A stretch of 64,000 bases of DNA. Origin: a virus. Both the position numbers and the translations under genes were made by a program. Under the pieces are notes generated by a model. That model did not search any database. It was not told where the DNA came from and saw only the letters and a list, made by a program, of their open reading frames with translations. The DNA lies in the IMG/VR virus record IMGVR_UViG_3300032286_000510, positions 14,932 to 78,931 of that record; one strand, written 5' to 3'. The number at the start of each line of letters is the position of its first letter. The stretch's first letter is position 1. Of this stretch, positions 2,193 to 17,083 are shown one piece after another.

Positions 2193-2234
2193 TGGCACAA
2201 GGCACTTGACATCCCACCAAAACTCTGGTATGAT
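2193..2234 (+). promoter_or_regulatory. Sigma70-type promoter driving CAGCAA RNA units 1-2 and the DUF2828 gene
   Basis: TGGCACA 2193-2199; TTGACA 2206-2211, 17 bp, TATGAT 2229-2234. Confidence 0.85.
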
Positions 2235-2251
2235 ACATAGGTAATCAACAA

Positions 2252-2310
2252 AAGATCAGTCAGCAACACAAGACACTTTTCATGTAAGAAAACTCGTAAA
2301 AACTGATCTT
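2252..2310 (+). ncRNA. Stem-CAGCAA structured RNA unit 1 (Y-RNA-like candidate)
   Basis: AAGATCAGT (2252-2260) pairs ACTGATCTT (2302-2310); CAGCAA 2261-2266; inner hairpin TTTTC-ATGTAA-GAAAA. Confidence 0.65.
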
Positions 2311-2316
2311 GTAATA

Positions 2317-2370
2317 AAGTTAATTCAGCAACACAACTTGAACTTCTAAACTCAAACAAAACATTAACTT
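2317..2370 (+). ncRNA. Stem-CAGCAA structured RNA unit 2
   Basis: AAGTTAAT (2317-2324) pairs ATTAACTT (2363-2370); CAGCAA 2326-2331; abuts GGAG RBS of next gene. Confidence 0.65.
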
Positions 2371-2380
2371 GGAGAAAATT

Positions 2381-3850
2381 ATGACTTTCCTGACCGCACT
2401 TGAAACTGAACTGAACACCACTGAAACTCTCAATGGTGCCAAAGCATACAAATCCACTCTCAACAAATGTGTAGATCTTTTTGGTAAAATTGGTGCTTGC
2501 CGTAATGACATTCCACAAGCAAAAAAACTATTTGCTTACGCATTCAAAGAAGATCCAGAGACTGCTACTCGTATCCTATTTTGGGTAAGAGACATTAGGG
2601 GTGGTGGACAAGGAGAACGTGAAATCTTCCGTAATCTCTTCAAAGACCTTGTGAATGGAAATAGTGAAATTGCCACTAAACTTGTGGAACTCATTCCTGT
2701 TTATGGTCGTTGGGATGACCTTCTGATTCTTGAAGGCACTTCCGTCTGGGATAATGTCGTGAATGTTATCGTCAATCAACTTCGCAAAGATGATGTTGCT
2801 CTGACCGCAGGGGAGAATGTTTCTCTGCTTGGTAAGTGGATGCCTTCTATCAATGCTTCTAGTGCTGATAGCAAACGTCTTGGTCGTGTGTTCGCAAAAC
2901 GTCTTGAACTGAACGAACGTCAGTATCGTAAGTTCCTGACTGCTCTTCGTTCTCAAATTAAAATTGTGGAACAGAAGATGTGTTCCAAAGAATGGTCTGA
3001 GATTGACTACGAACATCTTCCTTCTCGTGCTGGATTTATGTATCGTAAGGCATTCGCAAAGCAGGATGCTACTCGTTACGCAGAATATCTGAGTGCCGTG
3101 GAGAAAGGTGATAAGAAAATCAATGCCGGAACCATCTATCCTTATGAGATTGTAGAAAAATATCTCTATAAAGGTGGCAGTCAAGATAAGACTATTGACC
3201 TGATGTGGGAGGCACTGCCTAACTATATGGAAGGTCAAGAACTCAATGGTCTTGTGGTTGCCGATGTTTCTGGTAGTATGATGGGAACTCCAATGGCAGT
3301 TTCTATCTCTCTTGCGATGTATATTGCCGAACGCAATACTGGTATTTGGAAAAATAAGTTCATCACTTTCACCGAATGTCCTGAACTTCAATCCATCGTC
3401 GGTAATACTATCGGTGATCGTATTCGCAATCTTGCCAATTCTTCTTGGGGATACAATACTGACCTCAAAGCAGTATTTGAAAGTGTTCTGAATGCCGGAA
3501 TCAAGAATAATGTTCCTGACGCAGAAATGCCTAAGAAACTTATCATTGTTTCTGATATGCAGTTTGACCAAGCATGTGCTTCTAACAAACGCACCAACTT
3601 TGAGCAAATTCAGAAGATGTATCGTAAAGCAGGATATGAGATGCCTGAACTGGTTTTCTGGAATGTGAATGCGATTGGGGGCAATGTTCCTATGACCATT
3701 CACGATACTGGTACTTGTCTGGTGTCTGGTTGTTCTCCTTCCATCCTGAAAAGTGTTCTGAGTGGTAAAACTATCACTCCTGTGGATGTAATGAAGGATG
3801 CGGTGTATGCCGAACGTTATGATAAAATTGGGGAAGTGTTCGGTTCCTAA
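2381..3850 (+). CDS. DUF2828-family protein (TROVE/Ro60-like helical domain + C-terminal vWA domain)
   Basis: RDIRGGGQGER, YGRWDDL, KWMPS, VADVSGSM (MIDAS DxSxS), SDMQFD, FWNV motifs; start placed at ATG 2381 behind GGAG. Confidence 0.85.
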   Translation: MTFLTALETELNTTETLNGAKAYKSTLNKCVDLFGKIGACRNDIPQAKKLFAYAFKEDPETATRILFWVRDIRGGGQGEREIFRNLFKDLVNGNSEIATKLVELIPVYGRWDDLLILEGTSVWDNVVNVIVNQLRKDDVALTAGENVSLLGKWMPSINASSADSKRLGRVFAKRLELNERQYRKFLTALRSQIKIVEQKMCSKEWSEIDYEHLPSRAGFMYRKAFAKQDATRYAEYLSAVEKGDKKINAGTIYPYEIVEKYLYKGGSQDKTIDLMWEALPNYMEGQELNGLVVADVSGSMMGTPMAVSISLAMYIAERNTGIWKNKFITFTECPELQSIVGNTIGDRIRNLANSSWGYNTDLKAVFESVLNAGIKNNVPDAEMPKKLIIVSDMQFDQACASNKRTNFEQIQKMYRKAGYEMPELVFWNVNAIGGNVPMTIHDTGTCLVSGCSPSILKSVLSGKTITPVDVMKDAVYAERYDKIGEVFGS

Positions 3851-3852
3851 AC

Positions 3853-3896
3853 TGGCACAAGGGGGGTTGACAGAAACCCCCAACCTATGATATAAT
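3853..3896 (+). promoter_or_regulatory. Sigma70-type promoter driving RNA units 3-4
   Basis: TGGCACA 3853-3859; TTGACA 3867-3872; TG-a-TATAAT 3891-3896. Confidence 0.8.
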
Positions 3897-3904
3897 ACAT
3901 ACAA

Positions 3905-3951
3905 TAGATGGTTCAGCAATTTACCCATTTTATAGGAAAAACAACCATCTA
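3905..3951 (+). ncRNA. Stem-CAGCAA structured RNA unit 3
   Basis: TAGATGGTT (3905-3913) pairs AACCATCTA (3943-3951); CAGCAA 3914-3919; begins near +1 of promoter. Confidence 0.65.
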
Positions 3952-3958
3952 GCAAACA

Positions 3959-4026
3959 AAGGTCTCTCAGCATTTCAATTTTCTCCTAACTCAAATCTGG
4001 GATTTGAAAAACCTCAGTGAGACCTT
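3959..4026 (+). ncRNA. Stem-CAGCAT structured RNA unit 4
   Basis: AAGGTCTC (3959-3966) pairs GAGACCTT (4019-4026); CAGCAT 3968-3973; inner hairpin TCAAATC-TGG-GATTTGA. Confidence 0.6.
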
Positions 4027-4053
4027 GAAAAAACTTTCAATCCGTGATATAAT
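4025..4053 (+). promoter_or_regulatory. Sigma70-type promoter driving RNA unit 5 and tRNA-like gene
   Basis: TTGAAA 4025-4030, 17 bp, TG-a-TATAAT 4048-4053. Confidence 0.75.
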
Positions 4054-4057
4054 TTTA

Positions 4058-4105
4058 TAGATGATTCAGCAATTAACTGCTTGGTTATGCAAACAAAATC
4101 ATCTA
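4058..4105 (+). ncRNA. Stem-CAGCAA structured RNA unit 5
   Basis: TAGATGATT (4058-4066) pairs AATCATCTA (4097-4105); CAGCAA 4067-4072; compensatory G-C to A-T change relative to unit 3. Confidence 0.65.
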
Positions 4106-4111
4106 GTTCAA

Positions 4112-4224
4112 AGGAAGGTAGCTCAGCTGGATAGAGCAACGTAAAATATATCTTGTCAAGATATTCACAGCAATTAAACCGCATTGTAAGCCGTTTGTCG
4201 CAGGTTCAAGTCCTGCCCTTCCTA
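4112..4224 (+). tRNA. tRNA-Thr(UGU)-like RNA with 39-nt insertion in anticodon stem (tRNA mimic or intron-containing tRNA)
   Basis: Acceptor AGGAAGG/CCTTCCT, D-arm GCTC-AGCTGGATA-GAGC, T-arm GCAGG-TTCAAGT-CCTGC; deleting 4142-4180 gives ACGGC-ATTGTAA-GCCGT. Confidence 0.75.
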
Positions 4225-4315
4225 TATCAAAACCAGTTCTCAAACTGGCACACTGAGACCCCCGCAAAGGGGTCTTTTGCTGTATAATACAAACACATTC
4301 AAGGAGGAACCTCAC

Positions 4316-4711
4316 ATTTCTACTCGTTCTCGCATTGGTCTTCAACTTTCTGATGGTTCTGTTCTATCAGTATATCACCATTGGAATGGATATCCTGAAT
4401 GGTTGGGACGTATTTTGAATACTCACTACAACGCAAAATCTCTTGCCGAAGAACTGATTGATGGTGGTGATATGAGCATCTGTTGGACTGATGAACGATG
4501 GGATGATAGTGGTGTGGAAGGTGTTTATGGTCCCAATTATTATGCCCTCCGTGGTGATGATTGTCCTCCTCGTCTTGATGCTAATTTGATTGAGTATCTC
4601 GGTGATAATGAGGAATATGCTTACCTCTTTACTAATGGTGAATGGGTATGCTATGAACTTGGTGAAACCCCTGAAATTGTTGAAATTCCAAATGGAGCAT
4701 TGATGGTATGA
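4316..4711 (+). CDS. Conserved phage hypothetical protein (STRSRIG...YHHW.GYP family), apparent ATT start
   Basis: AAGGAGG 4301-4307 followed by in-frame ATT 4316; promoter TATAAT 4283. Confidence 0.7.
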   Translation: MSTRSRIGLQLSDGSVLSVYHHWNGYPEWLGRILNTHYNAKSLAEELIDGGDMSICWTDERWDDSGVEGVYGPNYYALRGDDCPPRLDANLIEYLGDNEEYAYLFTNGEWVCYELGETPEIVEIPNGALMV

Positions 4712-4911
4712 TTAAAGAAAAACGTAAGATTATTTCAGTTGAACCCATTACTTCAATCGCACAAACTAGATTTAAAGAAGAAATGGATTTACTGACTTCC
4801 TGTTATGTGGAAGATGAAAATGAAACACAAGTATTTCTTTGTTCTGTGAATAAGAAATACAAGTTCATTATGAATAAAAACGAAGACAAGAACTGGAGAA
4901 TCGTAAAGTGA
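4708..4911 (+). CDS. Cyanophage-type hypothetical protein
   Basis: ATGA overlap with upstream gene. Confidence 0.65.
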   Translation: MIKEKRKIISVEPITSIAQTRFKEEMDLLTSCYVEDENETQVFLCSVNKKYKFIMNKNEDKNWRIVK

Positions 4912-4969
4912 TGTGCCAGTTGTAGAGGTGGCACACTAAACGAGCACAGACCCCAAAATGCCCTATAAT
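4912..4969 (+). promoter_or_regulatory. Palindromic early promoter cassette
   Basis: TGTGCCA-N10-TGGCACA 4912-4935, 28 bp, TATAAT 4964. Confidence 0.8.
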
Positions 4970-4991
4970 AAGGAGACACAAGCAGAGGAAA

Positions 4992-5291
4992 ATGTCTAGC
5001 ATTGATATTCACGCAACCATCACAAAACCAATTGATGAATTAGAGAATGACATTTTCTTCTCTTTGGATAAAGAACAACTAAAAGATTTCATTTGTTCTT
5101 TGGAAGAGAAAGTTGGTTCTGTTGATTTCACACTACAACTTACCAAAAGACTTGTAGGTGGATTGATTGATTTCTACAAATGTTATATCGCAGATACGGA
5201 TTGTGATAAAGGACTTACTTATCATAATGAGTATGTATGGCAATATAAAAAATTAGATGCTATTCTAAACATTCTTAATGACATCCGATGA
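4992..5291 (+). CDS. Hypothetical protein
   Basis: ORF after promoter with GAGG RBS. Confidence 0.65.
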   Translation: MSSIDIHATITKPIDELENDIFFSLDKEQLKDFICSLEEKVGSVDFTLQLTKRLVGGLIDFYKCYIADTDCDKGLTYHNEYVWQYKKLDAILNILNDIR

Positions 5292-5551
5292 CCACTTCAA
5301 ATCTTTCTAAAATCAAGACAAAACTTCGCACCGAAGGTCGTGTATCTGGTAACTTTGGCAAAAACAAAGTAAAGGCAGGAAGTCCTATTACAGGAATTGG
5401 TGTTACAAACGCAAAGGTAGTCAATATCACAACTACTAATGATTATCTAACCAAAATGTATTATGTGTTAGATAATGCGACTGATTCTAAAATGAAACAG
5501 TTTGCTTATAATGAAATCAAAAAAATTCTTGTTCAACGAGGTGAATGGTAA
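5288..5551 (+). CDS. Hypothetical protein
   Basis: Coupled ORF. Confidence 0.65.
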   Translation: MTTSNLSKIKTKLRTEGRVSGNFGKNKVKAGSPITGIGVTNAKVVNITTTNDYLTKMYYVLDNATDSKMKQFAYNEIKKILVQRGEW

Positions 5552-5817
5552 TGGAACTTTCTACACAAAAACTGGAACGGATTTACAAAGAGTTGAAGGA
5601 GATTGTGAAGTTTGAAAACTCACTTCATATGATGGATATGACCCTCAATCAAACTGATGTGAATACTCTTGAAGAAGTGATTTCTATGATTGAAGACATC
5701 GTGAATTATGACCCAACACCTTATTATCTTTATGATAATTCTGGTGGGGAACCTCTTATGACTGCGAATGAAAGACTTTCTGCTGCTTGGCAAGAACACC
5801 TAAATCTTCATTCTTGA
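5551..5817 (+). CDS. Hypothetical protein
   Basis: Coupled ORF (TAATG). Confidence 0.6.
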   Translation: MELSTQKLERIYKELKEIVKFENSLHMMDMTLNQTDVNTLEEVISMIEDIVNYDPTPYYLYDNSGGEPLMTANERLSAAWQEHLNLHS

Positions 5818-5844
5818 TAAATACATAAAAAAGTATTTGTAAAG

Positions 5845-6489
5845 ATGAACTCACAAGACCTTCACAATCTTCAAGAAGCTTATATGGATGTTTATGGGGA
5901 AGAAACAAATTCAATGCGTCTTCCTGGAGAAACACGCAGACAATATAAAAAACATCAAGAAAGAAATCAACAATTACTAGATGATAAGGACAGTAGAAAA
6001 AAAGACAGAGCAAGAAATAAAAATCCATTATTTATTGGTAAAGATGGTAAAATAACTAAAACTCAAAGAGAAGAAACAGACCTTTACGACATCATTCTTT
6101 CACACTTACTTGATGAAGGTTATGCTGAAACACAAGAACAAGCAGAAGTCATTATGGTGAATATGAGTGAAGATTGGAGGGAAAGTATTGTGGATGTTTA
6201 TGGACTTGATGAAGAAATAACTCCAGAAAAAAGAGAACGATTTAAAAAAATTCTTTCGGTTAGACAATCAAATCAAGAAACTTACTTTGGTAAAAAAAGA
6301 CCAAGAAAAAGAGCAACCCCACCACAACCAGGAGCAGACTATTATAGACAAGGAATGACGCCAGATGATCGTTATAATAGAAGAGATCTTGCGAGAGAAG
6401 AAAATCCAGAAATACCAGAAGGTGAAGGCACAATAACCAAAAATCCAAAGAAACTTCGTAAACAAAAAGCAATGGGTGAGCACGGATGA
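5845..6489 (+). CDS. Late-expressed cyanophage protein (LQEAY..VY / DLYDIILSHLLDEGYA family), possible internal head protein
   Basis: ATAAATA late promoter-like 5817-5823; charged low-complexity protein. Confidence 0.65.
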   Translation: MNSQDLHNLQEAYMDVYGEETNSMRLPGETRRQYKKHQERNQQLLDDKDSRKKDRARNKNPLFIGKDGKITKTQREETDLYDIILSHLLDEGYAETQEQAEVIMVNMSEDWRESIVDVYGLDEEITPEKRERFKKILSVRQSNQETYFGKKRPRKRATPPQPGADYYRQGMTPDDRYNRRDLAREENPEIPEGEGTITKNPKKLRKQKAMGEHG

Positions 6490-6590
6490 GACCACTTCCC
6501 AAACTGGCACACTAAACCGGCACAGACCCCAAAACGTGGTATATTAAGGGAGTGGTCAAAGCAGACCACTCTTTTTTATTTCTAACTAAA

Positions 6591-6845
6591 ATGGAACAAA
6601 CTTTTGGATTTCCTCCTGTTGATGGTTTTTACAACTCCCTGAGGAAACTTGATTATGTAAAACTTGGTGAAGATTTTATCTTCATTCTTGCTACAATTTG
6701 TGCGGTTGTGGTTGGTGTTGTATCTTATGCCTACACCGCATTTCAGTTGTATTGGAATGATAATGGTGAAAGTATTGTAAATAGTATTACGACAAACACT
6801 AATCGTGTTGTTGATTTTTTCTTTTACAATTCAACCGACCAGTGA
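6591..6845 (+). CDS. Small membrane protein
   Basis: One hydrophobic segment; follows promoter cassette at 6490-6546. Confidence 0.6.
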   Translation: MEQTFGFPPVDGFYNSLRKLDYVKLGEDFIFILATICAVVVGVVSYAYTAFQLYWNDNGESIVNSITTNTNRVVDFFFYNSTDQ

Positions 6846-7054
6846 TTGCCTTGGGACAGTTCAGCAACCGTCCCTTCACACTTGATTCCGCACTCAAAAG
6901 GTGCTATACTAACAGAGTTCACAAACAAGCAAATGCCTCAAACACTAGATTTCACCGGAAACTGGATTACATTCCTAGGTTTTATCGGTATAGCATCAAC
7001 TGCTCTCATCGTCTTCACTTCTTTTCGTCGTTTTCATAATTCTCCTCTACGCAA

Positions 7055-7273
7055 ATGATTTACGACAAAAGTCTTTCTGAATACGAAAAAGACCTGAAAG
7101 AATCAAAAAAGAAGTATGAAAAACTTCTCAAACAAATGAAGAAAGCAAGGTCGGAGCATCAGTATTACAATCTTTATGATGAAGCAGAACTTCTTTATGA
7201 AGATATTGCCGACCTTCAACTACGAATTGCTGACCTCCGTAAGCAAAAGAAACTACAATCCAACTTGTTCTAA
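7055..7273 (+). CDS. Coiled-coil hypothetical protein
   Basis: Coupled ORF; 3' end overlaps convergent endonuclease. Confidence 0.6.
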   Translation: MIYDKSLSEYEKDLKESKKKYEKLLKQMKKARSEHQYYNLYDEAELLYEDIADLQLRIADLRKQKKLQSNLF

Positions 7274-7960
7274 TAAAACAAATCCTTTATGTTGTTTTCT
7301 TTTTCCATTTAGGGTATTCATAATGTTAGAACGATAAAGCATCTTATCTTTACAGAAAGCATTTAAATTATTAGTTTCGTAAATTTTAGATTCTTCAATT
7401 GAATATATTTTGTAATTGTATTTCAATTGTGAATCACTTTTTTTTCTTCTAGTTTCTTCTGATGGATTTTTATTTCTCTCACTTATTTTCTTTCTAGTTT
7501 CATCACTTATATTTTTCTTCGCTTCACTCATTTTTCTTTTGGTTTCTTCTGAAAGAGTTTTGCCTTTATTTGCTTCACTTATTTTTTTTCTGGTTTCTTT
7601 TGATGGATTTTTATTTGATTCACTAATTTTTTTTCTCGTTTCTTCTGAACGAGTTCTTTCTCTCTGCTTTCTTTTCCATTCATCACTCATTATAGCACCA
7701 GAAGAACCTTCACCACCATTAGTTCTATTAAGAAGAATACCTGTTCCTAAATCTTTTCTACCAAACACAGCAATCATATAGACCTCGTGCCTAAATGCTT
7801 CTTCTTCGGTTAAGTTCTGTTTTAGAATAAGTATTCTAGATTTATCTTTTGGTGGTTTGATGCCTTTATATCTTCTTCTATATGCCCTATTACCTTTTCC
7901 TTTGCCTATGTAATAGGGTGTCTTATCTTCACGCAAGAATGCGTAAGTGTAGTATTCCAT
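7253..7960 (-). CDS. GIY-YIG-like freestanding homing endonuclease with NUMOD3 repeats
   Basis: [19 protein letters not shown]-domain; repeated SEETRKKISE motifs; TATAAATA on minus strand at 7990-7983. Confidence 0.85.
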   Translation of the reverse strand: MEYYTYAFLREDKTPYYIGKGKGNRAYRRRYKGIKPPKDKSRILILKQNLTEEEAFRHEVYMIAVFGRKDLGTGILLNRTNGGEGSSGAIMSDEWKRKQRERTRSEETRKKISESNKNPSKETRKKISEANKGKTLSEETKRKMSEAKKNISDETRKKISERNKNPSEETRRKKSDSQLKYNYKIYSIEESKIYETNNLNAFCKDKMLYRSNIMNTLNGKRKQHKGFVLLEQVGL

Positions 7961-8056
7961 CTGCTTTACTTGTGGTTATATCTATTTATACAAGAAAGAG
8001 GTCAAAAATGACCCCTCTCTCTGCTTAAATAACCACAAGTAAGCAGTATTATTTAT
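7961..8056 (-). promoter_or_regulatory. Dual late promoter / antisense-hairpin cassette A upstream of endonuclease
   Basis: 14-bp inverted repeat 7966-7979/8029-8042 around a GGTCA hairpin and TATAAATA; second ATAAATA upstream. Confidence 0.65.
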
Positions 8057-8063
8057 TCCTATT

Positions 8064-8318
8064 ATGACTGACCTTTACCAAGAAATTTTGGAGTTTGATA
8101 AAATGAACCTTGATCTTGACCAACTGATTGAAGATTATGCTACTGACATCGTAGAAGGAATGGACCTTGATACTTTGGTTCAATTTGCCTATGATGTGAT
8201 TGTAGAGGGTCTAGAAGATATGAGTGTTAATGAGATTCTGGAACAAGTTGAAGAAAATGCTCCGCATCTTCTGGAAGAATTGGACGTGATTGTTCCAGAT
8301 GTTGAACCGGCACAGTAA
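8064..8318 (+). CDS. Acidic hypothetical protein (paralog of 17469..17681)
   Basis: YA..I...MD.D....AYD motif shared. Confidence 0.65.
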   Translation: MTDLYQEILEFDKMNLDLDQLIEDYATDIVEGMDLDTLVQFAYDVIVEGLEDMSVNEILEQVEENAPHLLEELDVIVPDVEPAQ

Positions 8319-8642
8319 AACAGCACAGACCCTCAAACCTGCTATAATTACTTCATAATCAATCAAAAACCTACGATGATTCGTGATTCTTCTGATCTTT
8401 ATCAAACTTCTTATGAACGTTTGAGAGACACTTGCCATGGTCTAATGAAACACTACAACCTTATGTTGTGTTGGCCTTCTAATAATGAAGTTGATAACTT
8501 ATTTTTTCAAGAGAAGTTTAATCAACACAAGTTCTACGAAGTTTGATTAGTCCTTGTGCCACTTCTTCTGGTGGCACACTGACCCTTGCCAAGATCCCCC
8601 CAAACGTGTTATGATGACTACATCAACAGTTAGAGGTGACAC

Positions 8643-8781
8643 GATGATTGAAACTTCTCTTATTCTTCACGATGATCTTGAGACTTTTGCTCAATATCTT
8701 GGTGTAGATTATGAAGACTACTACGAACTTTATCTTGGCATCGTTCAAGATGAAGAAGATGAAAGTCTAATTACTGTTTGA
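8643..8781 (+). CDS. Small acidic hypothetical protein
   Basis: GAGGTG RBS then ATG; after palindromic cassette at 8555. Confidence 0.5.
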
Positions 8782-8842
8782 TGATTATAGTCCTGGGATG
8801 ACTTAAAAAGCACCAAAACCCTTCACTTTACTTTCTTACATA

Positions 8843-9076
8843 ATGACTGCTCCTGCTTCTTTGATTGCTCTTGCTGCCGAACTCGTGAATACGAATCCTG
8901 CTGCTTCTCAACTGATTGTGAATCTTGGTAATGCTGAAACTGGTGATGAAGTGCTTGAAGCACTGAACACCTATGATGAATCCATTCTTGATTCTCTGGA
9001 ACCTGTTGATGAAGATGAAGATGAAGATGAGACTGATGAAGTTGAAGTTGATGAAACTGAACTCGTTGCTGTCTGA
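8843..9076 (+). CDS. Highly acidic hypothetical protein
   Basis: ORF with D/E tail, followed by hairpin. Confidence 0.65.
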   Translation: MTAPASLIALAAELVNTNPAASQLIVNLGNAETGDEVLEALNTYDESILDSLEPVDEDEDEDETDEVEVDETELVAV

Positions 9077-9088
9077 TAAGTAATATCA

Positions 9089-9114
9089 GGGAGAGAGAAA
9101 TCTCTTCCTTTCTT
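9089..9114 (+). terminator. Possible intrinsic terminator / processing hairpin before tRNA-Arg
   Basis: Imperfect GGGAGAGA-GAAA-TCTCTTCC hairpin followed by TTTCTT. Confidence 0.45.
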
Positions 9115-9188
9115 GTCTCAGTAGCTCAGATGGATAGAGCATCTCACTTCTAATGAGTAGGTCGGGGGTTCAAGTCCCTCCTGAGACG
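9115..9188 (+). tRNA. tRNA-Arg(UCU)
   Basis: Cloverleaf: GTCTCAG/CTGAGAC acceptor, anticodon loop CTTCTAA, GGGGG-TTCAAGT-CCCTC T-arm; CCA not encoded. Confidence 0.92.
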
Positions 9189-9211
9189 TTATACAAACAC
9201 CCTTCAAGACA

Positions 9212-9982
9212 ATGAAACTCAAACTATTAAGTGACCTTCACCTTGAGCACTATTGTGCTGGACAATACTTTGACCCAGGAGAAGGTGATGTTTTAGTTCT
9301 TGCTGGTGATATTCTTTGTGCCAAGCACTTGAAGAAGAATGGTTATCTTGCCGAAGTGTATGAAAAGTTCCTGACTGATTGTAGCAAGAACTATCAAAAG
9401 GTTCTCTATGTGAAAGGAAATCACGAGGCATATGGATATAATTACGAAGGAACACACAAAACCATTCAGGAGCATCTTCCTGATAACTTTCAGTTGATGG
9501 AGAATGATACAGTTACGATTGATAACTGGAACTTTATTGGTTTCACATTCTGGACTGATTTTCGTAATGAGAATCCATTAGAAATGATGTATGCTCAACA
9601 GTATATGAATGATTACAAAGTCATTCGCATTACTTCCAATTTCCGTAAGTTGAATACAAATGATACTCTTGGTTTTCATAAGAAGAGCAAGGAGTATCTT
9701 CTCAATCAACTTCAAGAATTGAATGAGAATGTATTCGTCATTAGTCATATGGCACCGAGTTATCAATCGGTTGCTCCTCAATTCAAGAACACGGAAAATG
9801 GTGCCTTTGTAAGTGATTTGGATGATTTGATTTTAAGTTATCCTCAAATCAAATACTGGTGTCATGGTCATGTCCATTCGTATTTTAACTATAATATTGG
9901 GGGATGTAAAATTCTATGTAATCCTGGTGGTTATCCTGGTCAGGACACAGGATTTAATCCAAATTTGATTTTGGGCATCTAG
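9212..9982 (+). CDS. Calcineurin-like metallophosphoesterase
   Basis: SDLHLE, LAGDI, GNHE, SH.AP, HGHVH motifs. Confidence 0.9.
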   Translation: MKLKLLSDLHLEHYCAGQYFDPGEGDVLVLAGDILCAKHLKKNGYLAEVYEKFLTDCSKNYQKVLYVKGNHEAYGYNYEGTHKTIQEHLPDNFQLMENDTVTIDNWNFIGFTFWTDFRNENPLEMMYAQQYMNDYKVIRITSNFRKLNTNDTLGFHKKSKEYLLNQLQELNENVFVISHMAPSYQSVAPQFKNTENGAFVSDLDDLILSYPQIKYWCHGHVHSYFNYNIGGCKILCNPGGYPGQDTGFNPNLILGI

Positions 9983-10031
9983 ATATAATGGGAATACTTA
10001 TTCTCAATTACAAACATTACTAAAAAGGTCG

Positions 10032-10508
10032 ATGGATTACTTAAAGATTGAACCAAATCAAACAATACTTGTTCTTAATGCTTCTTATGAACCTCTAAAT
10101 TTCATAAATTGGAGGAGAGCAGTTGTGTTGCTTATTAAGAACAAGGCACAGGCACTCGGCAAAAGAGTTATCCGTTTGGTTAATTACATTAAGATACCAT
10201 ACAAAAAACTAATGCAAAATAAACCATCACGAACAATGATTTATAAACGTGATGGTCACAAATGCCAGTATTGTGGTTCTACAAGAAATCTCACAATAGA
10301 TCACATCTTTCCAACTTCTAAAGGTGGTGGTAATACTTGGGAAAACCTAGTAGTTGCTTGTATGCCTTGTAATACAAGGAAAGGTGATAAACTATTGGAA
10401 GAAACCAATTTAATTCTTGATACTATTCCAAAGAAACCATTTAACAAAATGTTGTTTTCTTTGGATAGAACAGATGTTGATGAATGGAAAAAGTATTCTT
10501 ATAACTGA
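10032..10508 (+). CDS. HNH endonuclease (McrA-like)
   Basis: LVLNASYEPL; RDGHKCQYCG; TIDHIFP.SKGG...WENLVVAC..CN..KG. Confidence 0.9.
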   Translation: MDYLKIEPNQTILVLNASYEPLNFINWRRAVVLLIKNKAQALGKRVIRLVNYIKIPYKKLMQNKPSRTMIYKRDGHKCQYCGSTRNLTIDHIFPTSKGGGNTWENLVVACMPCNTRKGDKLLEETNLILDTIPKKPFNKMLFSLDRTDVDEWKKYSYN

Positions 10509-10527
10509 TAATTGAGAATTGTAATGA

Positions 10528-10632
10528 CTAAATACTAATGCCTTAGTTGGGTCGTATCTTCTCAGGTGAAAAGGGGCATTTCTGCCCCTTTTCTTGTATA
10601 AATACTAATACGACCCAATATAAAGAGCAGAA
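10528..10632 (+). promoter_or_regulatory. Dual late promoter / antisense-hairpin cassette B
   Basis: CTAAATA 10528; TTGGGTCGTAT 10547-10557 complementary to ATACGACCCAA 10608-10618; 11-bp hairpin 10568-10593; TATAAATA 10597-10604. Confidence 0.65.
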
Positions 10633-11307
10633 ATGAATTATTACACTTACGCATATTTGCGTGAAGATAGAACACCTTATTACATAGGAAAAGGTAATGG
10701 TAATAGGGCATATAGAAGAAGACATAAAGGCATCAAACCACCAAAAGATAAATCAAGAATAATATTCCTAAAACAGAACTTAACAGAAGAAGAGGCATTT
10801 AGACACGAAATCTATATGATTGCTGTGTTTGGTAGAAAGGATTTAGGAACTGGTATTCTTCACAACAGAACCGATGGTGGAGAGGGTGTTTCTGGTCTTA
10901 TTCATAATGAAGAAAGCAAAAGAAAAATGAGTAAAGCAAAGAAAGGTAAATCTCGGTCGGAAAAAACTAAAAGAAAAATAAGGGAAGCAGGTAAAGGCAG
11001 AACTCATTCAGACGAAAGTAAAAGAATAATAAGTGAAACAATGAAGGGCAGAAATCATTCAGAAGAAACTAAAAGAAAAATGAGTGAATCTAAACTAGGA
11101 AAACCTCGTAGCGAAGAAACTAAAAGAAAACTGAGTGAAGCAAATGTTGGTAAATCTCTTTCGGAAGAAACAAGAAAAAAATTAAGTGACCTTAATCGGG
11201 GTGAGAATAACGCACAATATGGTAAAAAATGGTGGAATAATAGAAAAGAGACTAAATTGTGTGTTAAGTGCCCTGGTGATGGTTGGGTTCTTGGAAGAAT
11301 AAAATAA
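10633..11307 (+). CDS. GIY-YIG-like freestanding homing endonuclease with NUMOD3 repeats
   Basis: N-terminal ~87 aa nearly identical to 7253..7960; [11 protein letters not shown] repeats. Confidence 0.85.
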
Positions 11308-11320
11308 TAAAGTATAGTGA

Positions 11321-11378
11321 TGTGCCAGTTGTAGCACTGGCACACTCAATCAGCACTGGTCCTAAAACCTGCTATAAT
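11321..11378 (+). promoter_or_regulatory. Palindromic early promoter cassette (consensus copy)
   Basis: TGTGCCAGTTGTAGCACTGGCACA, 28 bp, TG-C-TATAAT. Confidence 0.85.
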
Positions 11379-11399
11379 AAGAGGACACAAGCAAAGGAA

Positions 11400-11525
11400 A
11401 TGTCTACTCCAAATTGGCAACACAATTCAGGAAAACAAAAGAATACCAAAGGCACTTGTAAGGGCAAACTCAAATCCCGCAAACAATCACTTCAAGCACT
11501 CAAATCCAAACTGAATTTCAAATGA
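11400..11525 (+). CDS. Small basic cyanophage protein (MSTPNWQHNSGK)
   Basis: AAGG RBS + ATG 11400 after cassette. Confidence 0.55.
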   Translation: MSTPNWQHNSGKQKNTKGTCKGKLKSRKQSLQALKSKLNFK

Positions 11526-11917
11526 CTGAATCCACCAACGAAGTTCTTCATTACACTCAAGTTCTTTGCGAAGTTCTTCGTGAGAACTATAGGCAATATG
11601 GTATTGATTCTCACCGTCACTATATCACAAAAGGTGAGAATGTAGAGTATCACCAAAAACAAATTGATAGACTTTGTGAAGGTGAAGACCTTGCCGAATA
11701 TATCATTGATAAAGGTCGCAAATACTATAAGATTGTGATGAAGAATCACGGACAAAAACACGCACACTTGTTTGTTGATATGAATACTGGGGATTGTTAC
11801 AAGCCAGCATCTTGGAAAGCACCTGCCAAAGGTATTCGTTATAATCTTCTTGATGTTACATCCCGTGAGGAAATGTATAGGAGAGCAGACTGGGCAGGGT
11901 CGTACACTTACAAATAA
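11522..11917 (+). CDS. Conserved phage hypothetical protein
   Basis: GRKYYKIV...FVD..TGD.YKPASWKAPAKG.RYNL motif. Confidence 0.75.
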   Translation: MTESTNEVLHYTQVLCEVLRENYRQYGIDSHRHYITKGENVEYHQKQIDRLCEGEDLAEYIIDKGRKYYKIVMKNHGQKHAHLFVDMNTGDCYKPASWKAPAKGIRYNLLDVTSREEMYRRADWAGSYTYK

Positions 11918-11969
11918 TCAAGACCCAATCATTCTGGTATAAATAGAAATAGTTAGTATCCAATCAACT

Positions 11970-12470
11970 ATGAAACTTATACCAGAATATGAGGCATATA
12001 GTGTCACCGAAGACGGTGTAATTTATTCACACAAAAAACCAGGAGGAAAAGGAAAAGGCAAAATTGTTGATTATTCTTATAAAAGGCAACTAAAACCGCA
12101 AACCAACCACAAAGGATACTTAAATGTTATTTTGGAACAAGGTAGTTCTAATGCTAGAACTATGTCTATTCACAGAGCAGTAGCATTAGCATACATTCCA
12201 AATCCAAATAATTATGACACCATAAATCATATTGACGAAAACAAAACAAACAATCACGTATCAAATCTTGAATGGATGAGTAATGCTGACAACGTAGCAT
12301 ATTCACAAGCAAAAACAAGACTAATACAAACACCAGAGGGTGATAAAATAGAAATTACTAATTTATCAAAATGGTGTCGTGAAGTTTTAGGACTAAAATC
12401 ATCAGGGAATATGTTAAGGAGTTTGAGAAATCCTAATATGCCCTGTATGGGATATAAATTACTTAAATAA
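11970..12470 (+). CDS. HNH homing endonuclease (NUMOD4/HNH_3 type)
   Basis: IHRAVALAYIPNPNN..TINHIDENKTNNHVSNLEW; TATAAATA 11938-11945. Confidence 0.9.
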   Translation: MKLIPEYEAYSVTEDGVIYSHKKPGGKGKGKIVDYSYKRQLKPQTNHKGYLNVILEQGSSNARTMSIHRAVALAYIPNPNNYDTINHIDENKTNNHVSNLEWMSNADNVAYSQAKTRLIQTPEGDKIEITNLSKWCREVLGLKSSGNMLRSLRNPNMPCMGYKLLK

Positions 12471-12486
12471 CCTTCTCATATAACTG

Positions 12487-12678
12487 ATGTCAAACATTTC
12501 TTTCACCAAAGGTCTTGAAGTTTATTATGATGGAATGTATGGCATAGTTGATTTCATCTGCGAACAATACATCACAGTTTGTGTAAGAGTGATGGACCAC
12601 AAATCTAGAAATGTTTGTATATTAGTTTATCCAGACAGATTTAATTTAGTAAAACTAGCAAAAGAATCTGAAAAATGA
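12487..12678 (+). CDS. Cyanophage-type hypothetical protein
   Basis: G.V.FIC.QYITVC motif. Confidence 0.6.
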   Translation: MSNISFTKGLEVYYDGMYGIVDFICEQYITVCVRVMDHKSRNVCILVYPDRFNLVKLAKESEK

Positions 12679-12760
12679 ATCCTCATACAATCTCACTCAT
12701 AATGAGTCAATTATGGGTTCTTTTAATTCTTGTTATTGCTGTTTCTAATTTTCTAAATTG

Positions 12761-13099
12761 ATGAAAAAACTTCTATTACTTCTGTTGCTCATTCCTGCTC
12801 CTGTATTCGCAGCACCATTCAAGTATCAAACTCCTTGTATTTTAGAATCACAGAATGTTCTAACAGAAGATATTTGTACGGTAGTTGAAGTTCGTGAGAA
12901 AGGTGGAGCACTTAAATCACGCAACATCTATTCAAACAAGTTCTCATTGACAATCAAATCTTATTTCAGCAAGGAAAAAGGATTTATGACTTGGGATTCA
13001 TTTAACAAAATAGAATATCCTTGGCAATATAAGATTGACCCACTCAAAGGAAGTCTGGTGATGCCTGGAGTGTATCTCAAAGAAGTTTCTTGGGATTAA
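12761..13099 (+). CDS. Secreted/periplasmic hypothetical protein
   Basis: Signal peptide MKKLLLLLLLIPAPVFA. Confidence 0.65.
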   Translation: MKKLLLLLLLIPAPVFAAPFKYQTPCILESQNVLTEDICTVVEVREKGGALKSRNIYSNKFSLTIKSYFSKEKGFMTWDSFNKIEYPWQYKIDPLKGSLVMPGVYLKEVSWD

Positions 13100-13100
13100 A

Positions 13101-13727
13101 TTAAGAATAAAATAAAAAATACTTAACGTATTTTTCAGCAAACTCTTTATCAAAATAAGATTTCAAAATACCAAAAGCAGGATCATTTGTGGACATATAA
13201 TCATCAAATTTTTGATGGTGTTCTACGAATGATTCTTTTTTTGTGGCAGAATTCATTAAACACTTTTTGTATTGATGTAAGTAGCACTTTACCATAATTT
13301 GATATTCATTATAAAAACATTCACTGCTCTTTTTTATCCACAACTTTTTTGAGAAATACTTATTAAAATCATAAAACTTAGATGCGTTTGTTTTTGTGTT
13401 TGGAAACATTTCAAGATAAGACAAATAATCTTTATTATCACTAATTGGATGAAAATCTATTGCCCCAAAGTATTTTTTACTTCCAATCTGTAAATACTCT
13501 GTTCCAAATATAGGAGTTTCATAATGATGATTTGGATATATGACTAAGGACTCTGCTTGAAACTTTTGTTCAACATTTAATTCACACACTCTTATACGTT
13601 TACAATAATCAGACTTAAAAAGATATGATTTTAACTTAACTGAATTATTATTAGATGTCCTTTCTACCCAAATTGGAACTTCGGTTGAAGATAAATCTAA
13701 AAACTCTTTGAGTATATCTTTTAACAT
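13101..13727 (-). CDS. Ferredoxin-dependent bilin reductase (PebA/PebS-like, divergent)
   Basis: VIYP....TPIFG.E, AIDFHP, FYD.NKYFS, FDDYM...DPAFGILKSYF..EFA..Y...FLF motifs. Confidence 0.8.
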   Translation of the reverse strand: MLKDILKEFLDLSSTEVPIWVERTSNNNSVKLKSYLFKSDYCKRIRVCELNVEQKFQAESLVIYPNHHYETPIFGTEYLQIGSKKYFGAIDFHPISDNKDYLSYLEMFPNTKTNASKFYDFNKYFSKKLWIKKSSECFYNEYQIMVKCYLHQYKKCLMNSATKKESFVEHHQKFDDYMSTNDPAFGILKSYFDKEFAEKYVKYFLFYS

Positions 13728-13874
13728 TCAATCTATCAATATTTTTAACTTAACCTATTTAATACTAATACTGCTTGTGCCAGTTGTAGCACTGGCACAC
13801 TAAACGGGCACAGACCCCAATCTGTGGTATTCTAAGAGGGTGGTTGAGAGACCACCCTTTCGTTCAACAAACAA

Positions 13875-14108
13875 ATGATTCTTGACGTTTTTCATTATAC
13901 TACTTCCCGTTGGGATTGGCAGTCTGGTGATGTAAACCAAATGTGGATTCAAGAGATTGAAGAAGCACCTGATGTTTATAGGTACGTTGCTGTTGCTTAC
14001 AATCCTCGCAAGGATTCAAGTATGGTGATGTCTAATCCTCGTGGGTATTTTGATACTCTACAATGGGTTCAAAAGTTCTGTGGTTCCTTCTCCCTTCTTC
14101 CTAACTGA
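13875..14108 (+). CDS. Hypothetical protein
   Basis: ORF after cassette at 13776. Confidence 0.6.
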   Translation: MILDVFHYTTSRWDWQSGDVNQMWIQEIEEAPDVYRYVAVAYNPRKDSSMVMSNPRGYFDTLQWVQKFCGSFSLLPN

Positions 14109-14330
14109 TTATGATTTACGACATTACTATTGAGTTTAGGGATGGAACTGTTGATAAGTTTCAACGCAAAAGTAATATCAAACCTATCAATAGTATAAAA
14201 CTCAACGATAAAATTGCTAATGAAATCTTTCCACGAGAGTGGAAAGAAATCTCTTCCAAACCTGTTTATTGATTATGACTTTCACTTTTCCTCGTGTCTC
14301 TGCTGGTCTCTACGAAGTTCAAAAGAATTC

Positions 14331-14430
14331 ATAAATAATGATGCTTATGTGTGGTTACTAAGCAAAAGATTAGAGGCAGAAATGCCTCTTTTCTTGTATA
14401 AATAGATATAACCACACATAAAGTAGAACT
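14331..14430 (+). promoter_or_regulatory. Dual late promoter / antisense-hairpin cassette C
   Basis: ATAAATA 14331; TTATGTGTGGTTA 14345-14357 complementary to TAACCACACATAA 14409-14421; hairpin 14372-14389; TATAAATA 14397-14404. Confidence 0.65.
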
Positions 14431-15219
14431 ATGGAAACTCCAAAGGAGTATTACTATACCTATTATTCTTATGAAGAATGGGGTAGAGGATATATTGGCA
14501 GTAGAGGTTGCTATTGCTTACCAGAAGAAGACATAAGATATTTTGGTTCATTCAGGGATAAAACATTCAAACCAACTCAAAAAATAATACTCAAAGATGA
14601 TTATGCTACAAGAGAAGACGCATATGTTGATGAGATTATTTTACACGACTTTTATGATGTAGGTAATAATCCTCATTTTGCCAATAGAGCAAAGGCAACT
14701 TCTGCAAAGTTTTGTTTATCCAAAGAACAATCAAAAGAAATTGGATTGAAAAGTAAAGAACTTGGTATTGGTTTATTTTCACTAACAAAAGAACAAAGAA
14801 TAGAAAATGGCAGAAAAGGTGGTCCAATAGGTGGAAAGATTGTGGGGGCAGAAAATAAAAGACTTGGACGTGGGATATTTGGACTATCTCCACAACAAAA
14901 AAGTGAAATTGCCAAAAAAGCAAATAAACTGTCAAGTAAAAATACAAAAAAAGGAAGGAAACCAAAACCACCTCTTCTTGAACCAGAAGAACTAAAAAAT
15001 TGTAAAATTAAAAACGGAAAAAAATCTGGTATGAAACACAAAGAAAACAAAACAGGTGTTTGTGGAATATCACCGGAAGAACATTCAAAAAGAGCATCTA
15101 TCACAAATAGTCAAAAGTGGAGATGTCTTGAAACCGGACACATTAGTAATGCCGGAGGATTGTCTAAATATCAAAAATCAAAAGGGATAGATACTTCATT
15201 GAGAGAAAGATTGGAATAA
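14431..15219 (+). CDS. GIY-YIG-like (Seg-like) homing endonuclease
   Basis: YYYTYYSYEEWGRGYIGSR, YFGS, E..LH..YDV..NPHFAN; basic Gly-rich repeats. Confidence 0.8.
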   Translation: METPKEYYYTYYSYEEWGRGYIGSRGCYCLPEEDIRYFGSFRDKTFKPTQKIILKDDYATREDAYVDEIILHDFYDVGNNPHFANRAKATSAKFCLSKEQSKEIGLKSKELGIGLFSLTKEQRIENGRKGGPIGGKIVGAENKRLGRGIFGLSPQQKSEIAKKANKLSSKNTKKGRKPKPPLLEPEELKNCKIKNGKKSGMKHKENKTGVCGISPEEHSKRASITNSQKWRCLETGHISNAGGLSKYQKSKGIDTSLRERLE

Positions 15220-15321
15220 ACTTGAATAAATGATGCCCTGTGCCAATTTTTGAACCGTCCCCAACACCCCCAAACCCACACCATTCCGTGCTATGATTAC
15301 GGAGTAATCGGCACAAGATTT

Positions 15322-15660
15322 ATGACTTCCTTTGAGTTTGTTAGACAAAAAGCAGGAGAATACAAAATCACCAAAAACGGACAATTTGTTGGAAGTATAA
15401 AAAAAGCAAATGCTTCCAAATGGATTGTAACTGATGTTGTTGATACTCCTCAACAAGTTACAAAGACTCTCAAAGATGCCAAAGATGCCTGTATCAATCT
15501 CATCATCTTTGATGTAGTTGACAACACCTCTGAACCTGTGTATAATGACTCTGTTAGGGTTGATAGTCATATTAACTCTATTGAACTTCAAAGGCAAATG
15601 CTGGAGAATATGTGTAATCTTCAAGTCAAAGTTCCTACACTTGAACCCATTGCTTTTTGA
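15322..15660 (+). CDS. Hypothetical protein
   Basis: ATG after promoter cassette 15239-15297. Confidence 0.6.
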   Translation: MTSFEFVRQKAGEYKITKNGQFVGSIKKANASKWIVTDVVDTPQQVTKTLKDAKDACINLIIFDVVDNTSEPVYNDSVRVDSHINSIELQRQMLENMCNLQVKVPTLEPIAF

Positions 15661-15683
15661 TGTATAAATAAAATACATTTCTT

Positions 15684-15754
15684 GCCCTATAAGCATTGTG
15701 GTGATGCAGCAGTTTTGTAAACTGCAGAGAACAGTTCAATTCTGTTATGGGGCT
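15684..15754 (+). tRNA. tRNA-Thr(UGU)
   Basis: GCCCTAT/ATGGGGC acceptor, GCAT/ATGC D-stem, GCAGT-TTTGTAA-ACTGC anticodon arm, AACAG-TTCAATT-CTGTT T-arm; TATAAATA at 15663. Confidence 0.8.
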
Positions 15755-15850
15755 CTTAATCTTATAGTGATGTGCCAGTTGTAGGACTGGATGATAACAC
15801 CCTGAATAGCACCTAAAACGTGCTATAATAACTTTGTAATGATTCAACCT

Positions 15851-17083
15851 ATGAAACTCTATCCCTACCAGCAAACTGCCTTAAATGCCATTCAGCAGCA
15901 CAATAAAGGTGTCGTTGTGATTCCTACTGGTGGTGGCAAAACAGTAGTGATGATGGAAGATGTAAAAGGCAAACTGCTTGCATCTACCTTACCGCTCACA
16001 GTTGTGATTGTGTGCCCTCGTATTATGCTTGCAACACAACTTTGTAGTGAGTTTGAAGAGTATCTCAAAGAGTTTTCAATTTCTATCTCTCACGTTCATA
16101 GTGGTGAAACTCATTATCATTCTACGACTTCACCCGGAAATCTAAAAGCACAAAGTGCGATTGTAAAAGCACTCAATCATCATCACTTTATCTTTACGAC
16201 TTACAACTCACTACAACGTGTGAATGAGTCAGGAATCACTTTGGACGTGGTGTATTTTGATGAAGCACATCATTGTGTGAAACAATCTAACTTCGTTGGT
16301 GTTGCACAAACATCTGCAAGTTCTAATGCTGCGTATTTCTTCACTGCAACTCCACGAGTGAATAATACACCACAATCTATGAATAATACTGATGTGTATG
16401 GTCAAAAGATTGTATCTATTCCTGCACAAGAACTGATTGATGTTGGTAGTATTATTCCCCCACAAGTTGAAGTGTTTGAGCATAGTCATACACGTACAAA
16501 GTTCAATGCTGCGTATGTTGATTCAGAGAACGTGATTGATATTCTTTCTTCGTTTGATGAGACTGGAACACATAAAGTTCTTGTTGCTGCACCATCTACC
16601 AAAGTAATCTGGGAAATGGTATCACAATCTGATGCTCTTCATCGTTTGAATGAAATGGGTTATGAAGTTCTGCATATCACCAGCAAGCACGGTGCTTATA
16701 TCGGCAAGAAGAAAGTATCCCGTGAAGTATTCTTTGATACACTCACTGATTATGGCAACGACCCAGACAAAAAGTTTGTGTTGATGCACTATTCAATTCT
16801 TTCAGAAGGAATGAATGTATCAGGTCTCACTCATTGTATTGTTCTTCGTAATCTTCCAATGATTGAGATGTGCCAAACTATTGGTCGTGTAGTTCGTATG
16901 CACCGTGATGACCGAAAAGCAATCATAGATGGTAAGATTGCAGCAGGACAGTTTCAATTCTATAAGAAACCATATGGTAAGATGATTGTGCCAGTCAATC
17001 AGGGTTTGGGTAAGAACATTCTACGTCAACTTCAAAATGTTGTTGATGCTGTGTTTGTAAAAGGAGAGTTCACTGCTACATAA
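15851..17083 (+). CDS. SF2 (DEAH) helicase, type III restriction Res-like
   Basis: PTGGGKT, FDEAHH, TATP, SEG, QTIGRVVR motifs. Confidence 0.9.
   Translation: MKLYPYQQTALNAIQQHNKGVVVIPTGGGKTVVMMEDVKGKLLASTLPLTVVIVCPRIMLATQLCSEFEEYLKEFSISISHVHSGETHYHSTTSPGNLKAQSAIVKALNHHHFIFTTYNSLQRVNESGITLDVVYFDEAHHCVKQSNFVGVAQTSASSNAAYFFTATPRVNNTPQSMNNTDVYGQKIVSIPAQELIDVGSIIPPQVEVFEHSHTRTKFNAAYVDSENVIDILSSFDETGTHKVLVAAPSTKVIWEMVSQSDALHRLNEMGYEVLHITSKHGAYIGKKKVSREVFFDTLTDYGNDPDKKFVLMHYSILSEGMNVSGLTHCIVLRNLPMIEMCQTIGRVVRMHRDDRKAIIDGKIAAGQFQFYKKPYGKMIVPVNQGLGKNILRQLQNVVDAVFVKGEFTAT

Follow-up and report, generated by a model that had tools for sequence, protein, structure and literature searches.

In this work, we asked what kind of RNA is encoded at positions 4112-4224 (+ strand) of a 64,000-nucleotide (nt) stretch of phage DNA (positions 14,932 to 78,931 of the IMG/VR record IMGVR_UViG_3300032286_000510; hereafter the window), where a gene of 113 nt has the shape of a transfer RNA (tRNA) and carries 39 additional nucleotides in its anticodon stem. 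The source is a T4-like cyanomyovirus, and the viral record of 78.9 kb is estimated to be 40% complete. An earlier reading of the letters alone (the sequence-only reading) had labelled the gene tRNA-Thr-like and had offered two options, a tRNA-scaffolded mimic resembling Y RNAs and a novel protein-spliced tRNA intron. We consider it likely that the gene encodes a Y-RNA-like tRNA mimic, in which the 39-nt insert would dock the Ro60-like protein encoded upstream on the same strand.

The tRNA features of the gene are complete. The acceptor stem AGGAAGG (4112-4118) pairs with CCTTCCT (4217-4223) at seven of seven positions and is followed by the discriminator A4224. The D arm consists of a 4-bp stem (GCTC/GAGC) and a GG-containing loop, AGCTGGATA, and the T arm of a 5-bp stem, GCAGG-TTCAAGT-CCTGC, so that the three arms are perfect, as the sequence-only reading had stated. 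The anticodon arm runs in the order ACG (4139-4141), the insert (4142-4180, + strand), GC (4181-4182), the loop ATTGTAA (4183-4189), and GCCGT (4190-4194), which places the insert, hereafter the handle, between positions 29 and 30 of the stem. As had also been claimed, what remains when exactly these 39 nt are excised is a cloverleaf of 74 nt, whose anticodon stem has 5 bp and whose loop has U33, A37, and the anticodon UGU. With the handle in place, an inner 2-bp stem GC/GC (4181-4191, + strand) surrounds an anticodon-like 7-nt loop, AUUGUAA (4183-4189), with U33 and A37. The handle has its own hairpin (4148-4164, + strand; RNAfold), formed by ATATCTT (4148-4154), the loop GTC, and AAGATAT (4158-4164). 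The single-stranded CAGCAATTAA follows directly 3' of the hairpin (4168-4177, + strand) and is identical to 4067-4076 in a neighbouring hairpin RNA, unit 5, which bears out another early observation. The Rfam tRNA model spans 4112-4224 end to end with 46.5 bits (E 2e-7; gathering score 29), a 50-nt local insertion replacing 11 model positions, and tRNA was the sole Rfam family matched by the gene at E up to 10.

The first possibility to be weighed is that a tRNA gene was disrupted by a chance insertion and is now a decaying, functionless pseudo-tRNA. ARAGORN with default settings leaves the gene uncalled, and the homologue in Synechococcus phage B3 is annotated as 'tRNA-OTHER' with the note 'tRNA-Pseudo-GCA' (MN695334.1), both of which would suit such a relic. 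Phages B3 and B23 (Kyanoviridae) are the nearest records of the phage collection for the query 3600-4900, at ~76% identity. The B3 homologue lies just downstream of the orthologous 491-aa gene and differs in its acceptor stem and anticodon (UCG) but has the same split arm and a nearly identical insert, in whose hairpin a U:A pair has become A:U by a compensatory change. A pattern search derived from the insert found further copies in IMG/VR contigs, tandem pairs included, and the four metagenomic contigs retrieved by the insert pattern alone all encode a gene for a protein with the Pfam domains DUF2828 and DUF7788, to which the neighbouring Ro60-like protein belongs. A covariance model (R1) was then built from six copies; it gives the window gene 130.6 bits and was used to search 33 viral loci chosen for encoding relatives of the neighbouring protein. 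This search returned 35 distinct insert-bearing tRNA shapes of 110-123 nt in 17 loci encoding the protein, located on the gene's own strand, mostly immediately downstream of it, and often in arrays of 2-4. Acceptor stems are paired at 7/7 positions in 33 of the 35 members and have many different sequences, and T stems are paired at 5/5 positions in 34. The motif C(A/U/C)GCA(A/U)U follows the handle hairpin in every member and also occurs in the hairpin-only RNAs described below, and the insert, that is, the hairpin followed by CAGCAAUU, is the most conserved part of the family.

A cleaner alignment was made of 23 distinct sequences; in it, 97.9% of the cells pair, versus 74.0% in shuffles and only 42-48% in a control in which the 3' partners were slid by 1-3 columns. 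Pairs changed on both sides at 25 of 28 positions; all stems covary, and in the insert hairpin 6 of 7 pairs change on both sides, with 98.1% of cells paired. The size of this effect and the diversity of the stem sequences leave little doubt that the tRNA-shaped fold is under selection. The feature is far beyond chance, as homologues in other phages retain every stem through compensatory changes. The search among related phages that the sequence-only reading had proposed returned insert-bearing tRNA shapes many times over, and random decay of the anticodon arm without CAGCAA, which that reading had associated with a pseudo-tRNA, is contradicted by the ubiquitous motif and the covarying stems. 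A near-consensus promoter of its own (see below) also speaks against a relic, and decay can essentially be excluded.

A tRNA-shaped gene under selection could still be a decoding tRNA. The window contains an intact, normal tRNA-Thr(UGU) at 15684-15755, detected by both ARAGORN and Rfam, which begins with GCC and has G1 and C2, in agreement with the sequence-only reading. In Escherichia coli, the identity pairs of threonyl-tRNA synthetase (ThrRS) are G1:C72 and C2:G71. Compared with these established E. coli rules, the acceptor of 4112-4224 is without the ThrRS pairs and has A1:U72 and G2:C71 in their place, as had been noted before. Moreover, the 39-nt insert splits the anticodon stem, so the gene has no contiguous cloverleaf of the kind found in an elongator tRNA-Thr(UGU), and the anticodon is not conserved: the same acceptor stem (AGGAAGG) and body bear UGU in the window and in the related locus L010 and UGG in L011. 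With a near-identical body bearing UGG and an acceptor that lacks the ThrRS pairs, the label tRNA-Thr-like is not supported.

For each of the 35 members, the position of the insert was located and the arm left after its excision was assessed. In ten members, the window gene among them, excision leaves a flawless arm, with 5 bp in the stem, 7 nt in the loop, and U33 and R37 in place. These ten share the stem letters ACG, handle, GC-loop-GCCGT, occur on different acceptor stems, and carry the anticodons UGU, UGG, UCU, UCG, GUU, and UUU. The other 25 members are left with loops of 6-9 nt, often without U33, or with an imperfect stem, and the insert position ranges from 26 to 31 across the family. 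By comparing the window with L011a, 3 of 13 differences were found to fall in the 7-nt anticodon loop (P 0.03 uncorrected, in a weak test), and faster change of this loop was not significant in the B3, L017, and L025 pairs. The element conserved in this family is the insert, and not the tRNA identity.

The origin of the tRNA body can be considered separately. The window RNA has A20 in its D loop, like bacterial tRNA-Arg, and the body of 4112-4224 may descend from tRNA-Arg because of this shared A20. Family members with Arg anticodons have U20 and not A20. In addition, an ordinary, insert-less tRNA gene of another organism, present on a metatranscriptome contig, matches the D arm of the window gene exactly (23/23 letters) and agrees with it in 29 of 31 letters of the stretch that begins with the 3' strand of the anticodon stem and ends with the T arm; it has the loop UUUCUAA, a different acceptor stem, and an encoded CCA.

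The precise restoration of a canonical anticodon arm in ten members, always with U33 and R37, is compatible with the second option of the sequence-only reading, namely a real tRNA gene with a new, short, protein-spliced intron. An endonuclease would then recognise the hairpin or CAGCAA and excise the 39 nt, and an Rnl2-type ligase would join the ends to give a decoding tRNA(UGU). Five genomes were scanned for splicing enzymes: the window's record, B3, and three large relatives, two of the five being complete. Rnl2-type ligase domains (PF09414) were found in four of the five, which favours this option, and the argument that the phages have no RNA ligase was dropped. The best PF09414 match (G002:C1:244397-244852) scores 104 bits in a 222-aa frame. 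Should that genome be circular, with the two record ends joined, this ligase would lie ~5 kb from the Ro60-like gene, and such proximity would be a hint of RNA repair.

Nevertheless, we regard splicing as improbable. Splicing of fixed geometry is disfavoured because the insert is found anywhere from 26 to 31 and because excision leaves 25 of 35 members with non-canonical loops or stems; this variability would fit an arm rebuilt around a protein handle. Neither RtcB (PF01139) nor a tRNA splicing endonuclease of the EndA type (PF01974) was found in the five genomes, so that of the two enzymes proposed earlier as a check, RNA ligase and RtcB, only ligase domains were seen there. Inspection of 4139-4194 revealed no bulge-helix-bulge, the junctions having no pairing for the 4-bp central helix. 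The insert was rightly judged too short for a group I or group II intron: it has 39 nt, and no ribozyme or intron family of Rfam matched it at E up to 10. The same threshold returned no Y RNA, ribozyme, or intron family for 2200-4300 and 3000-17000. The unsuitable acceptor pairs, the UGG on the same body in a close relative, and the normal tRNA-Thr(UGU) at 15684 are further points against an intron, as is the occurrence of the identical type of handle in hairpin RNAs, where no tRNA is available for splicing. Archaeal non-canonical bulge-helix-bulge introns are tens of nucleotides long and lie outside 37/38, the anticodon stem included, and their exact removal restores the cloverleaf. The insert described here resembles them in its shortness, its place in the anticodon stem, and the restored cloverleaf. 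It differs from them in the lack of a bulge-helix-bulge at the junctions, in its variable position, and in the bacterial host, and the phages gave no match for the splicing endonuclease or RtcB.

The favoured partner-RNA reading draws first on the nature of the neighbouring protein. Its gene (2369-3850, + strand; likely start ATG 2381, preceded by GGAG) ends 262 nt before 4112-4224 on the same strand. The product matches the Pfam families DUF2828 and DUF7788, the latter being a von Willebrand factor A (vWA) domain with the motif of an adhesion site dependent on metal ions (MIDAS), DxSxS, of which D299, S301, and S303 are invariant in an alignment of 18 phage homologues. These were the only Pfam matches; by sequence, the protein does not match Pfam TROVE, and phmmer with this protein found no match among the Protein Data Bank (PDB) sequences. 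By structure, on the other hand, the AlphaFold2 model (predicted local distance difference test, pLDDT, 82.6) had only Ro60/TROVE proteins among its 12 top Foldseek matches in the PDB, all full length with E 3e-8 to 6e-5, including Ro60 of Thermus phage phiLo, Xenopus and human Ro60, and Deinococcus Rsr. VIA-align superposed the model on Ro60 structures with Z 10.7-14.7 and 327-396 aligned residues over both domains, and matches to the vWA domain only ranked lower. The product is thus predicted to have the fold of a Ro60-shaped TROVE ring plus vWA domain, belonging to a branch that Pfam files outside TROVE. Its relatives occur in 705 phage records, many annotated as 'Ro-like RNA binding protein', and the DUF2828/DUF7788 family comprises 7075 clusters at 50% identity (E up to 0.001). 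In the complete or large related genomes, every long match bearing the CAGCAA handle adjoins the Ro60-like gene. Related phages also have tRNA-shaped genes of ~120 nt within tRNA clusters (G001:C1:62104-62224 and G004:C1:76958-77075; L054 and L055), whose structured 45-50-nt anticodon-arm inserts are unrelated and without the CAGCAA handle; these may be a second kind of tRNA-like RNA.

The second line of evidence comes from small RNAs that carry the handle and no tRNA body. Five such hairpin units surround the Ro60-like gene, at 2252-2310 (unit 1) and 2317-2370 (unit 2) in its 5' leader (2252-2370, + strand), at 3905-3951 (unit 3) and 3959-4026 (unit 4) downstream of it (3905-4026, + strand), and at 4058-4105 (unit 5, + strand). 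Each has a terminal helix of 8-9 bp with CAGCA(A) directly after the 5' strand. In unit 5 (z -3.29), the helix is the 9-bp TAGATGATT/AATCATCTA, and CAGCAATTAA stands right after its 5' strand. All cyanophage loci carry hairpin units at the same places, two of them just before the start codon, and other units alternate with tRNA shapes at a spacing of 1-10 nt. In both hairpin units and tRNA shapes, the strand preceding CAGCAA is (A/U)AGAU. The two forms are circular permutations of one module, since the partner strand lies at the 3' end of the RNA in the units and just upstream, across a small closing loop, in the tRNA shapes. Units with a T-arm-like GGTTCGATTCC stem-loop were observed at L015:5002-5054, L019:4930-4985, L018:4610-4693, L014:4994-5074, and L028:2810-2902. 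Because some hairpin-only units enclose this stem-loop, the family grades from a bare handle, through a handle with a T arm, to a handle within a whole tRNA.

Protein identity falls to just 35-41% in two further phages that have the module beside the gene, Mycobacterium phage LilDestine and a Felixounavirus. In LilDestine (L053:3890-4200), the 369-nt gap that follows the gene annotated as 'Ro-like RNA binding protein' is taken up by three unannotated RNAs consisting of a helix and UA-(A)CAGCAA; in the middle RNA, T arm, closed stem, and D arm succeed one another in the permuted manner of YrlA RNAs. None of the three was detected by Rfam. In the Felixounavirus, three handle RNAs are located between the tRNAs that follow the gene. 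The Rfam Y RNA models had no match in ten remote loci. That the module is inherited together with the gene down to 35-41% protein identity is our principal reason for inferring that it is the binding site of the Ro60-like protein.

In summary of these lines, the partner-RNA reading is favoured because the protein has a predicted Ro60 fold, because the RNA family lies beside its gene, because the insert is the most conserved part, and because the handle recurs in hairpin RNAs without tRNA and in remote phages. The first option of the sequence-only reading, a tRNA-scaffolded Y-RNA-like mimic, is strengthened by the same points, the docking itself being a prediction. We hypothesize that the product of the gene is a small RNA of tRNA shape that does not decode and would act as the partner, analogous to a Y RNA, of the phage Ro60-like protein. 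It would probably be transcribed from its own promoter jointly with hairpin unit 5, and host RNase P and 3' processing enzymes would trim it like a tRNA by means of the genuine 7-bp acceptor stem. The 39-nt insert would serve as docking handle, with a short helix, the strand (A/U)AGAU before the motif, and then the single-stranded CAGCAAUU. The co-occurrence of RNA and gene suggests that the ring-shaped TROVE plus vWA protein binds this handle. The L-shaped body and the real-looking anticodon loop would then be presented to some tRNA-binding factor and tether it to the protein, in analogy to the bacterial Y RNAs that link Ro60 to polynucleotide phosphorylase (PNPase).

Y RNAs are tRNA mimics encoded at most 4 kb from Ro60, on the same strand, with several per locus (PMC4201824). 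The system described here resembles the Ro60 (Rsr) and YrlA pairs of bacteria and mycobacteriophages (Chen et al. 2014, PMC4201824) in having a TROVE plus vWA ring, here as a predicted fold, and several nearby small RNAs on the same strand. Furthermore, like YrlA RNAs, the window RNA combines a helix that bears a conserved motif, protein-binding in YrlA and predicted to be so here, with a tRNA-like domain of D arm, T arm, and acceptor-like stem. The gene distance (262 nt), the strand, and the tRNA-like domain with D and T arms all agree with YrlA, and the same-strand neighbourhood within ~4 kb is repeated in the 17 related loci and also in whole genomes. The differences are equally clear. The protein belongs to the DUF2828/DUF7788 branch without a Pfam TROVE match by sequence. 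The motif CAGCAA, or C(A/U/C)GCA(A/U)U, comes after the helix strand, whereas YrlA has GNCGAA(N)G on the 5' strand of the helix. A YrlA RNA has a Ro-binding helix built from its two ends, and its tRNA-like part, in permuted order, has an 'acceptor' stem that is closed; the window RNA is a complete, unpermuted tRNA that ends in a true 7-bp acceptor stem with discriminator and has its handle inside the anticodon stem. It would work like a Y RNA and is not classed here as a member of YrlA.

In structure, the predicted protein was most similar to Ro60 of Thermus phage phiLo (PDB 9KOP and 9L5Y; Z 14.7 and 13.4). The phiLo protein has two adjacent Yrl RNAs as binding partners and forms a complex with host PNPase (PMC12135203). 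Both phages encode a Ro60 or Ro60-like protein with RNAs beside its gene. However, Yrl1 and Yrl2 have a stem-bulge-stem structure with a CGAA motif instead of the shape of a tRNA, and the protein identity is only 16-18%. Abundant non-coding RNAs (ncRNAs) near an Rsr-like gene, suspected to be Y RNAs, were also reported for a Listeria phage (PMC12282133). Yrn1 of Deinococcus radiodurans is similar in that it has a Ro-binding helix and a tRNA-like part modelled with an anticodon-arm-like stem-loop (PMC4201824); there, the Ro-binding helix replaces the acceptor stem, whereas the window RNA keeps an intact acceptor stem and bears the handle in its anticodon arm. The published layout of the dictyostelid Class I RNAs (PMC7919456) fits the hairpin-only units, although Class I RNAs are eukaryotic and have no tRNA body. 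We found no Rfam family and no paper describing this RNA family. Literature on DUF2828 returned only plant and tardigrade gene lists, a search for cyanophages and TROVE returned nothing relevant, and the S-CREM1 ncRNA paper does not mention these RNAs. By this comparison, the RNA represents a new architecture for a tRNA mimic, a complete, unpermuted tRNA with a predicted protein handle in the anticodon stem and a variable, canonical-looking anticodon loop on display.

The arrangement of the transcription units bears on the role of the tRNA body. Three near-consensus sigma-70-type promoters with a TG extension were found by a consensus scan 5-10 nt before units 1, 3, and 5. They are located on the + strand at 2206-2234 (before units 1-2), at 3867-3896 (before units 3-4; consensus 12/12), and at 4025-4053 (TTGAAA, 17 nt, TATAAT, with TG before the second hexamer; 11/12), the last with a predicted transcription start at ~4058-4060. 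Judging from its match to the consensus, the promoter at 4025-4053 would serve both the tRNA-shaped gene and unit 5, which is separated by 6 nt from 4112-4224 and is probably co-transcribed with it. A hairpin resembling an intrinsic terminator, AGACCCC/GGGGTCT followed by TTTT, was read from the sequence at 4256-4278 (+ strand) and was not listed by the consensus scan. The body could therefore be mainly a scaffold for processing and stability, whose RNase P and RNase Z punctuation would free the neighbouring CAGCAA hairpin RNAs and in which the anticodon-like loop would have no role. One promoter preceding both RNAs, the 6-nt gap, and the arrays of alternating hairpin units and tRNA shapes with elements 1-10 nt apart would all suit this explanation, and it overlaps with the partner-RNA reading, as the handle would still bind the protein. 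It leaves unexplained, however, why the handle is placed inside the tRNA body and why the triplet varies in ten members whose 7-nt loop, U33 and R37 included, has stayed perfect, and units 1-4 of the window have no flanking tRNA shape. We consider a mere scaffold rather unlikely.

Some further observations concern the same region. With its 3' strand, unit 2 extends to 2370, immediately ahead of GGAG and ATG 2381, and the protein could autoregulate its translation if it bound units 1 and 2. A search of sequencing runs returned only freshwater metatranscriptomes with small shares of the window, and four of them gave contigs of 90-95% relatives. These contigs cover 3600-4032 and 4344-4597 at depth and have other letters in the tRNA-like region, and none spans 4112-4224. 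They depart from the window exactly at 4032 and run into an extra tRNA-shaped RNA, starting GGGAACGTGGTGTAA, which close relatives have between units 4 and 5 (e.g., L011:4671-4788) and which is missing from the window (site 4032-4058). A contig joining 4141 to 4187 was considered as a spliced form and rejected, as it is an ordinary, different tRNA with another acceptor stem, an encoded CCA, and six other letters between these positions. Elsewhere in the window, a long, near-perfect hairpin at 7960-8048 (- strand) gives a spurious match to the microRNA family mir-627 (32.7 bits, E 0.0004).

Several points weigh against the partner-RNA reading. The flawless arm of the ten members after excision is also what a spliced tRNA requires, and the PF09414 domains in four of five genomes make a splicing ligase possible. 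The alignment of 23 sequences used for covariation was fitted to the model, which favours structure. Finally, YrlA RNAs have a GNCGAA motif that the handle does not share, and the Rfam Y RNA models are unmatched.

Ro60 and its Y RNAs form a conserved and poorly understood RNA-surveillance particle, and we know of no RNA partner described for the DUF2828/DUF7788 branch. The tRNA-shaped RNAs and the hairpin units are a candidate family of partner RNAs for these proteins, with a simple and testable candidate recognition element, the helix and CAGCAA. Isolated phages (Synechococcus phages B3 and B23) carry the family, which makes bench experiments on this question feasible. In genome annotation, the family accounts for entries such as the 'tRNA-OTHER' and 'tRNA-Pseudo-GCA' of B3, and the finding is of interest to the fields of Ro60 and Y RNAs and of phage tRNAs. 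More tentatively, and as a doubtful extension, the arrays could be panels of baits, in which anticodon loops displayed on tRNA bodies and anchored by the handle to the Ro60-like ring would trap or divert host enzymes recognising such loops. Candidate targets are the anticodon nucleases of anti-phage defence, tRNA-modifying enzymes, and an RNA-repair ligase. If true, it would mean a new mechanism of viral counter-defence or tRNA surveillance and a function for the very large DUF2828 family.
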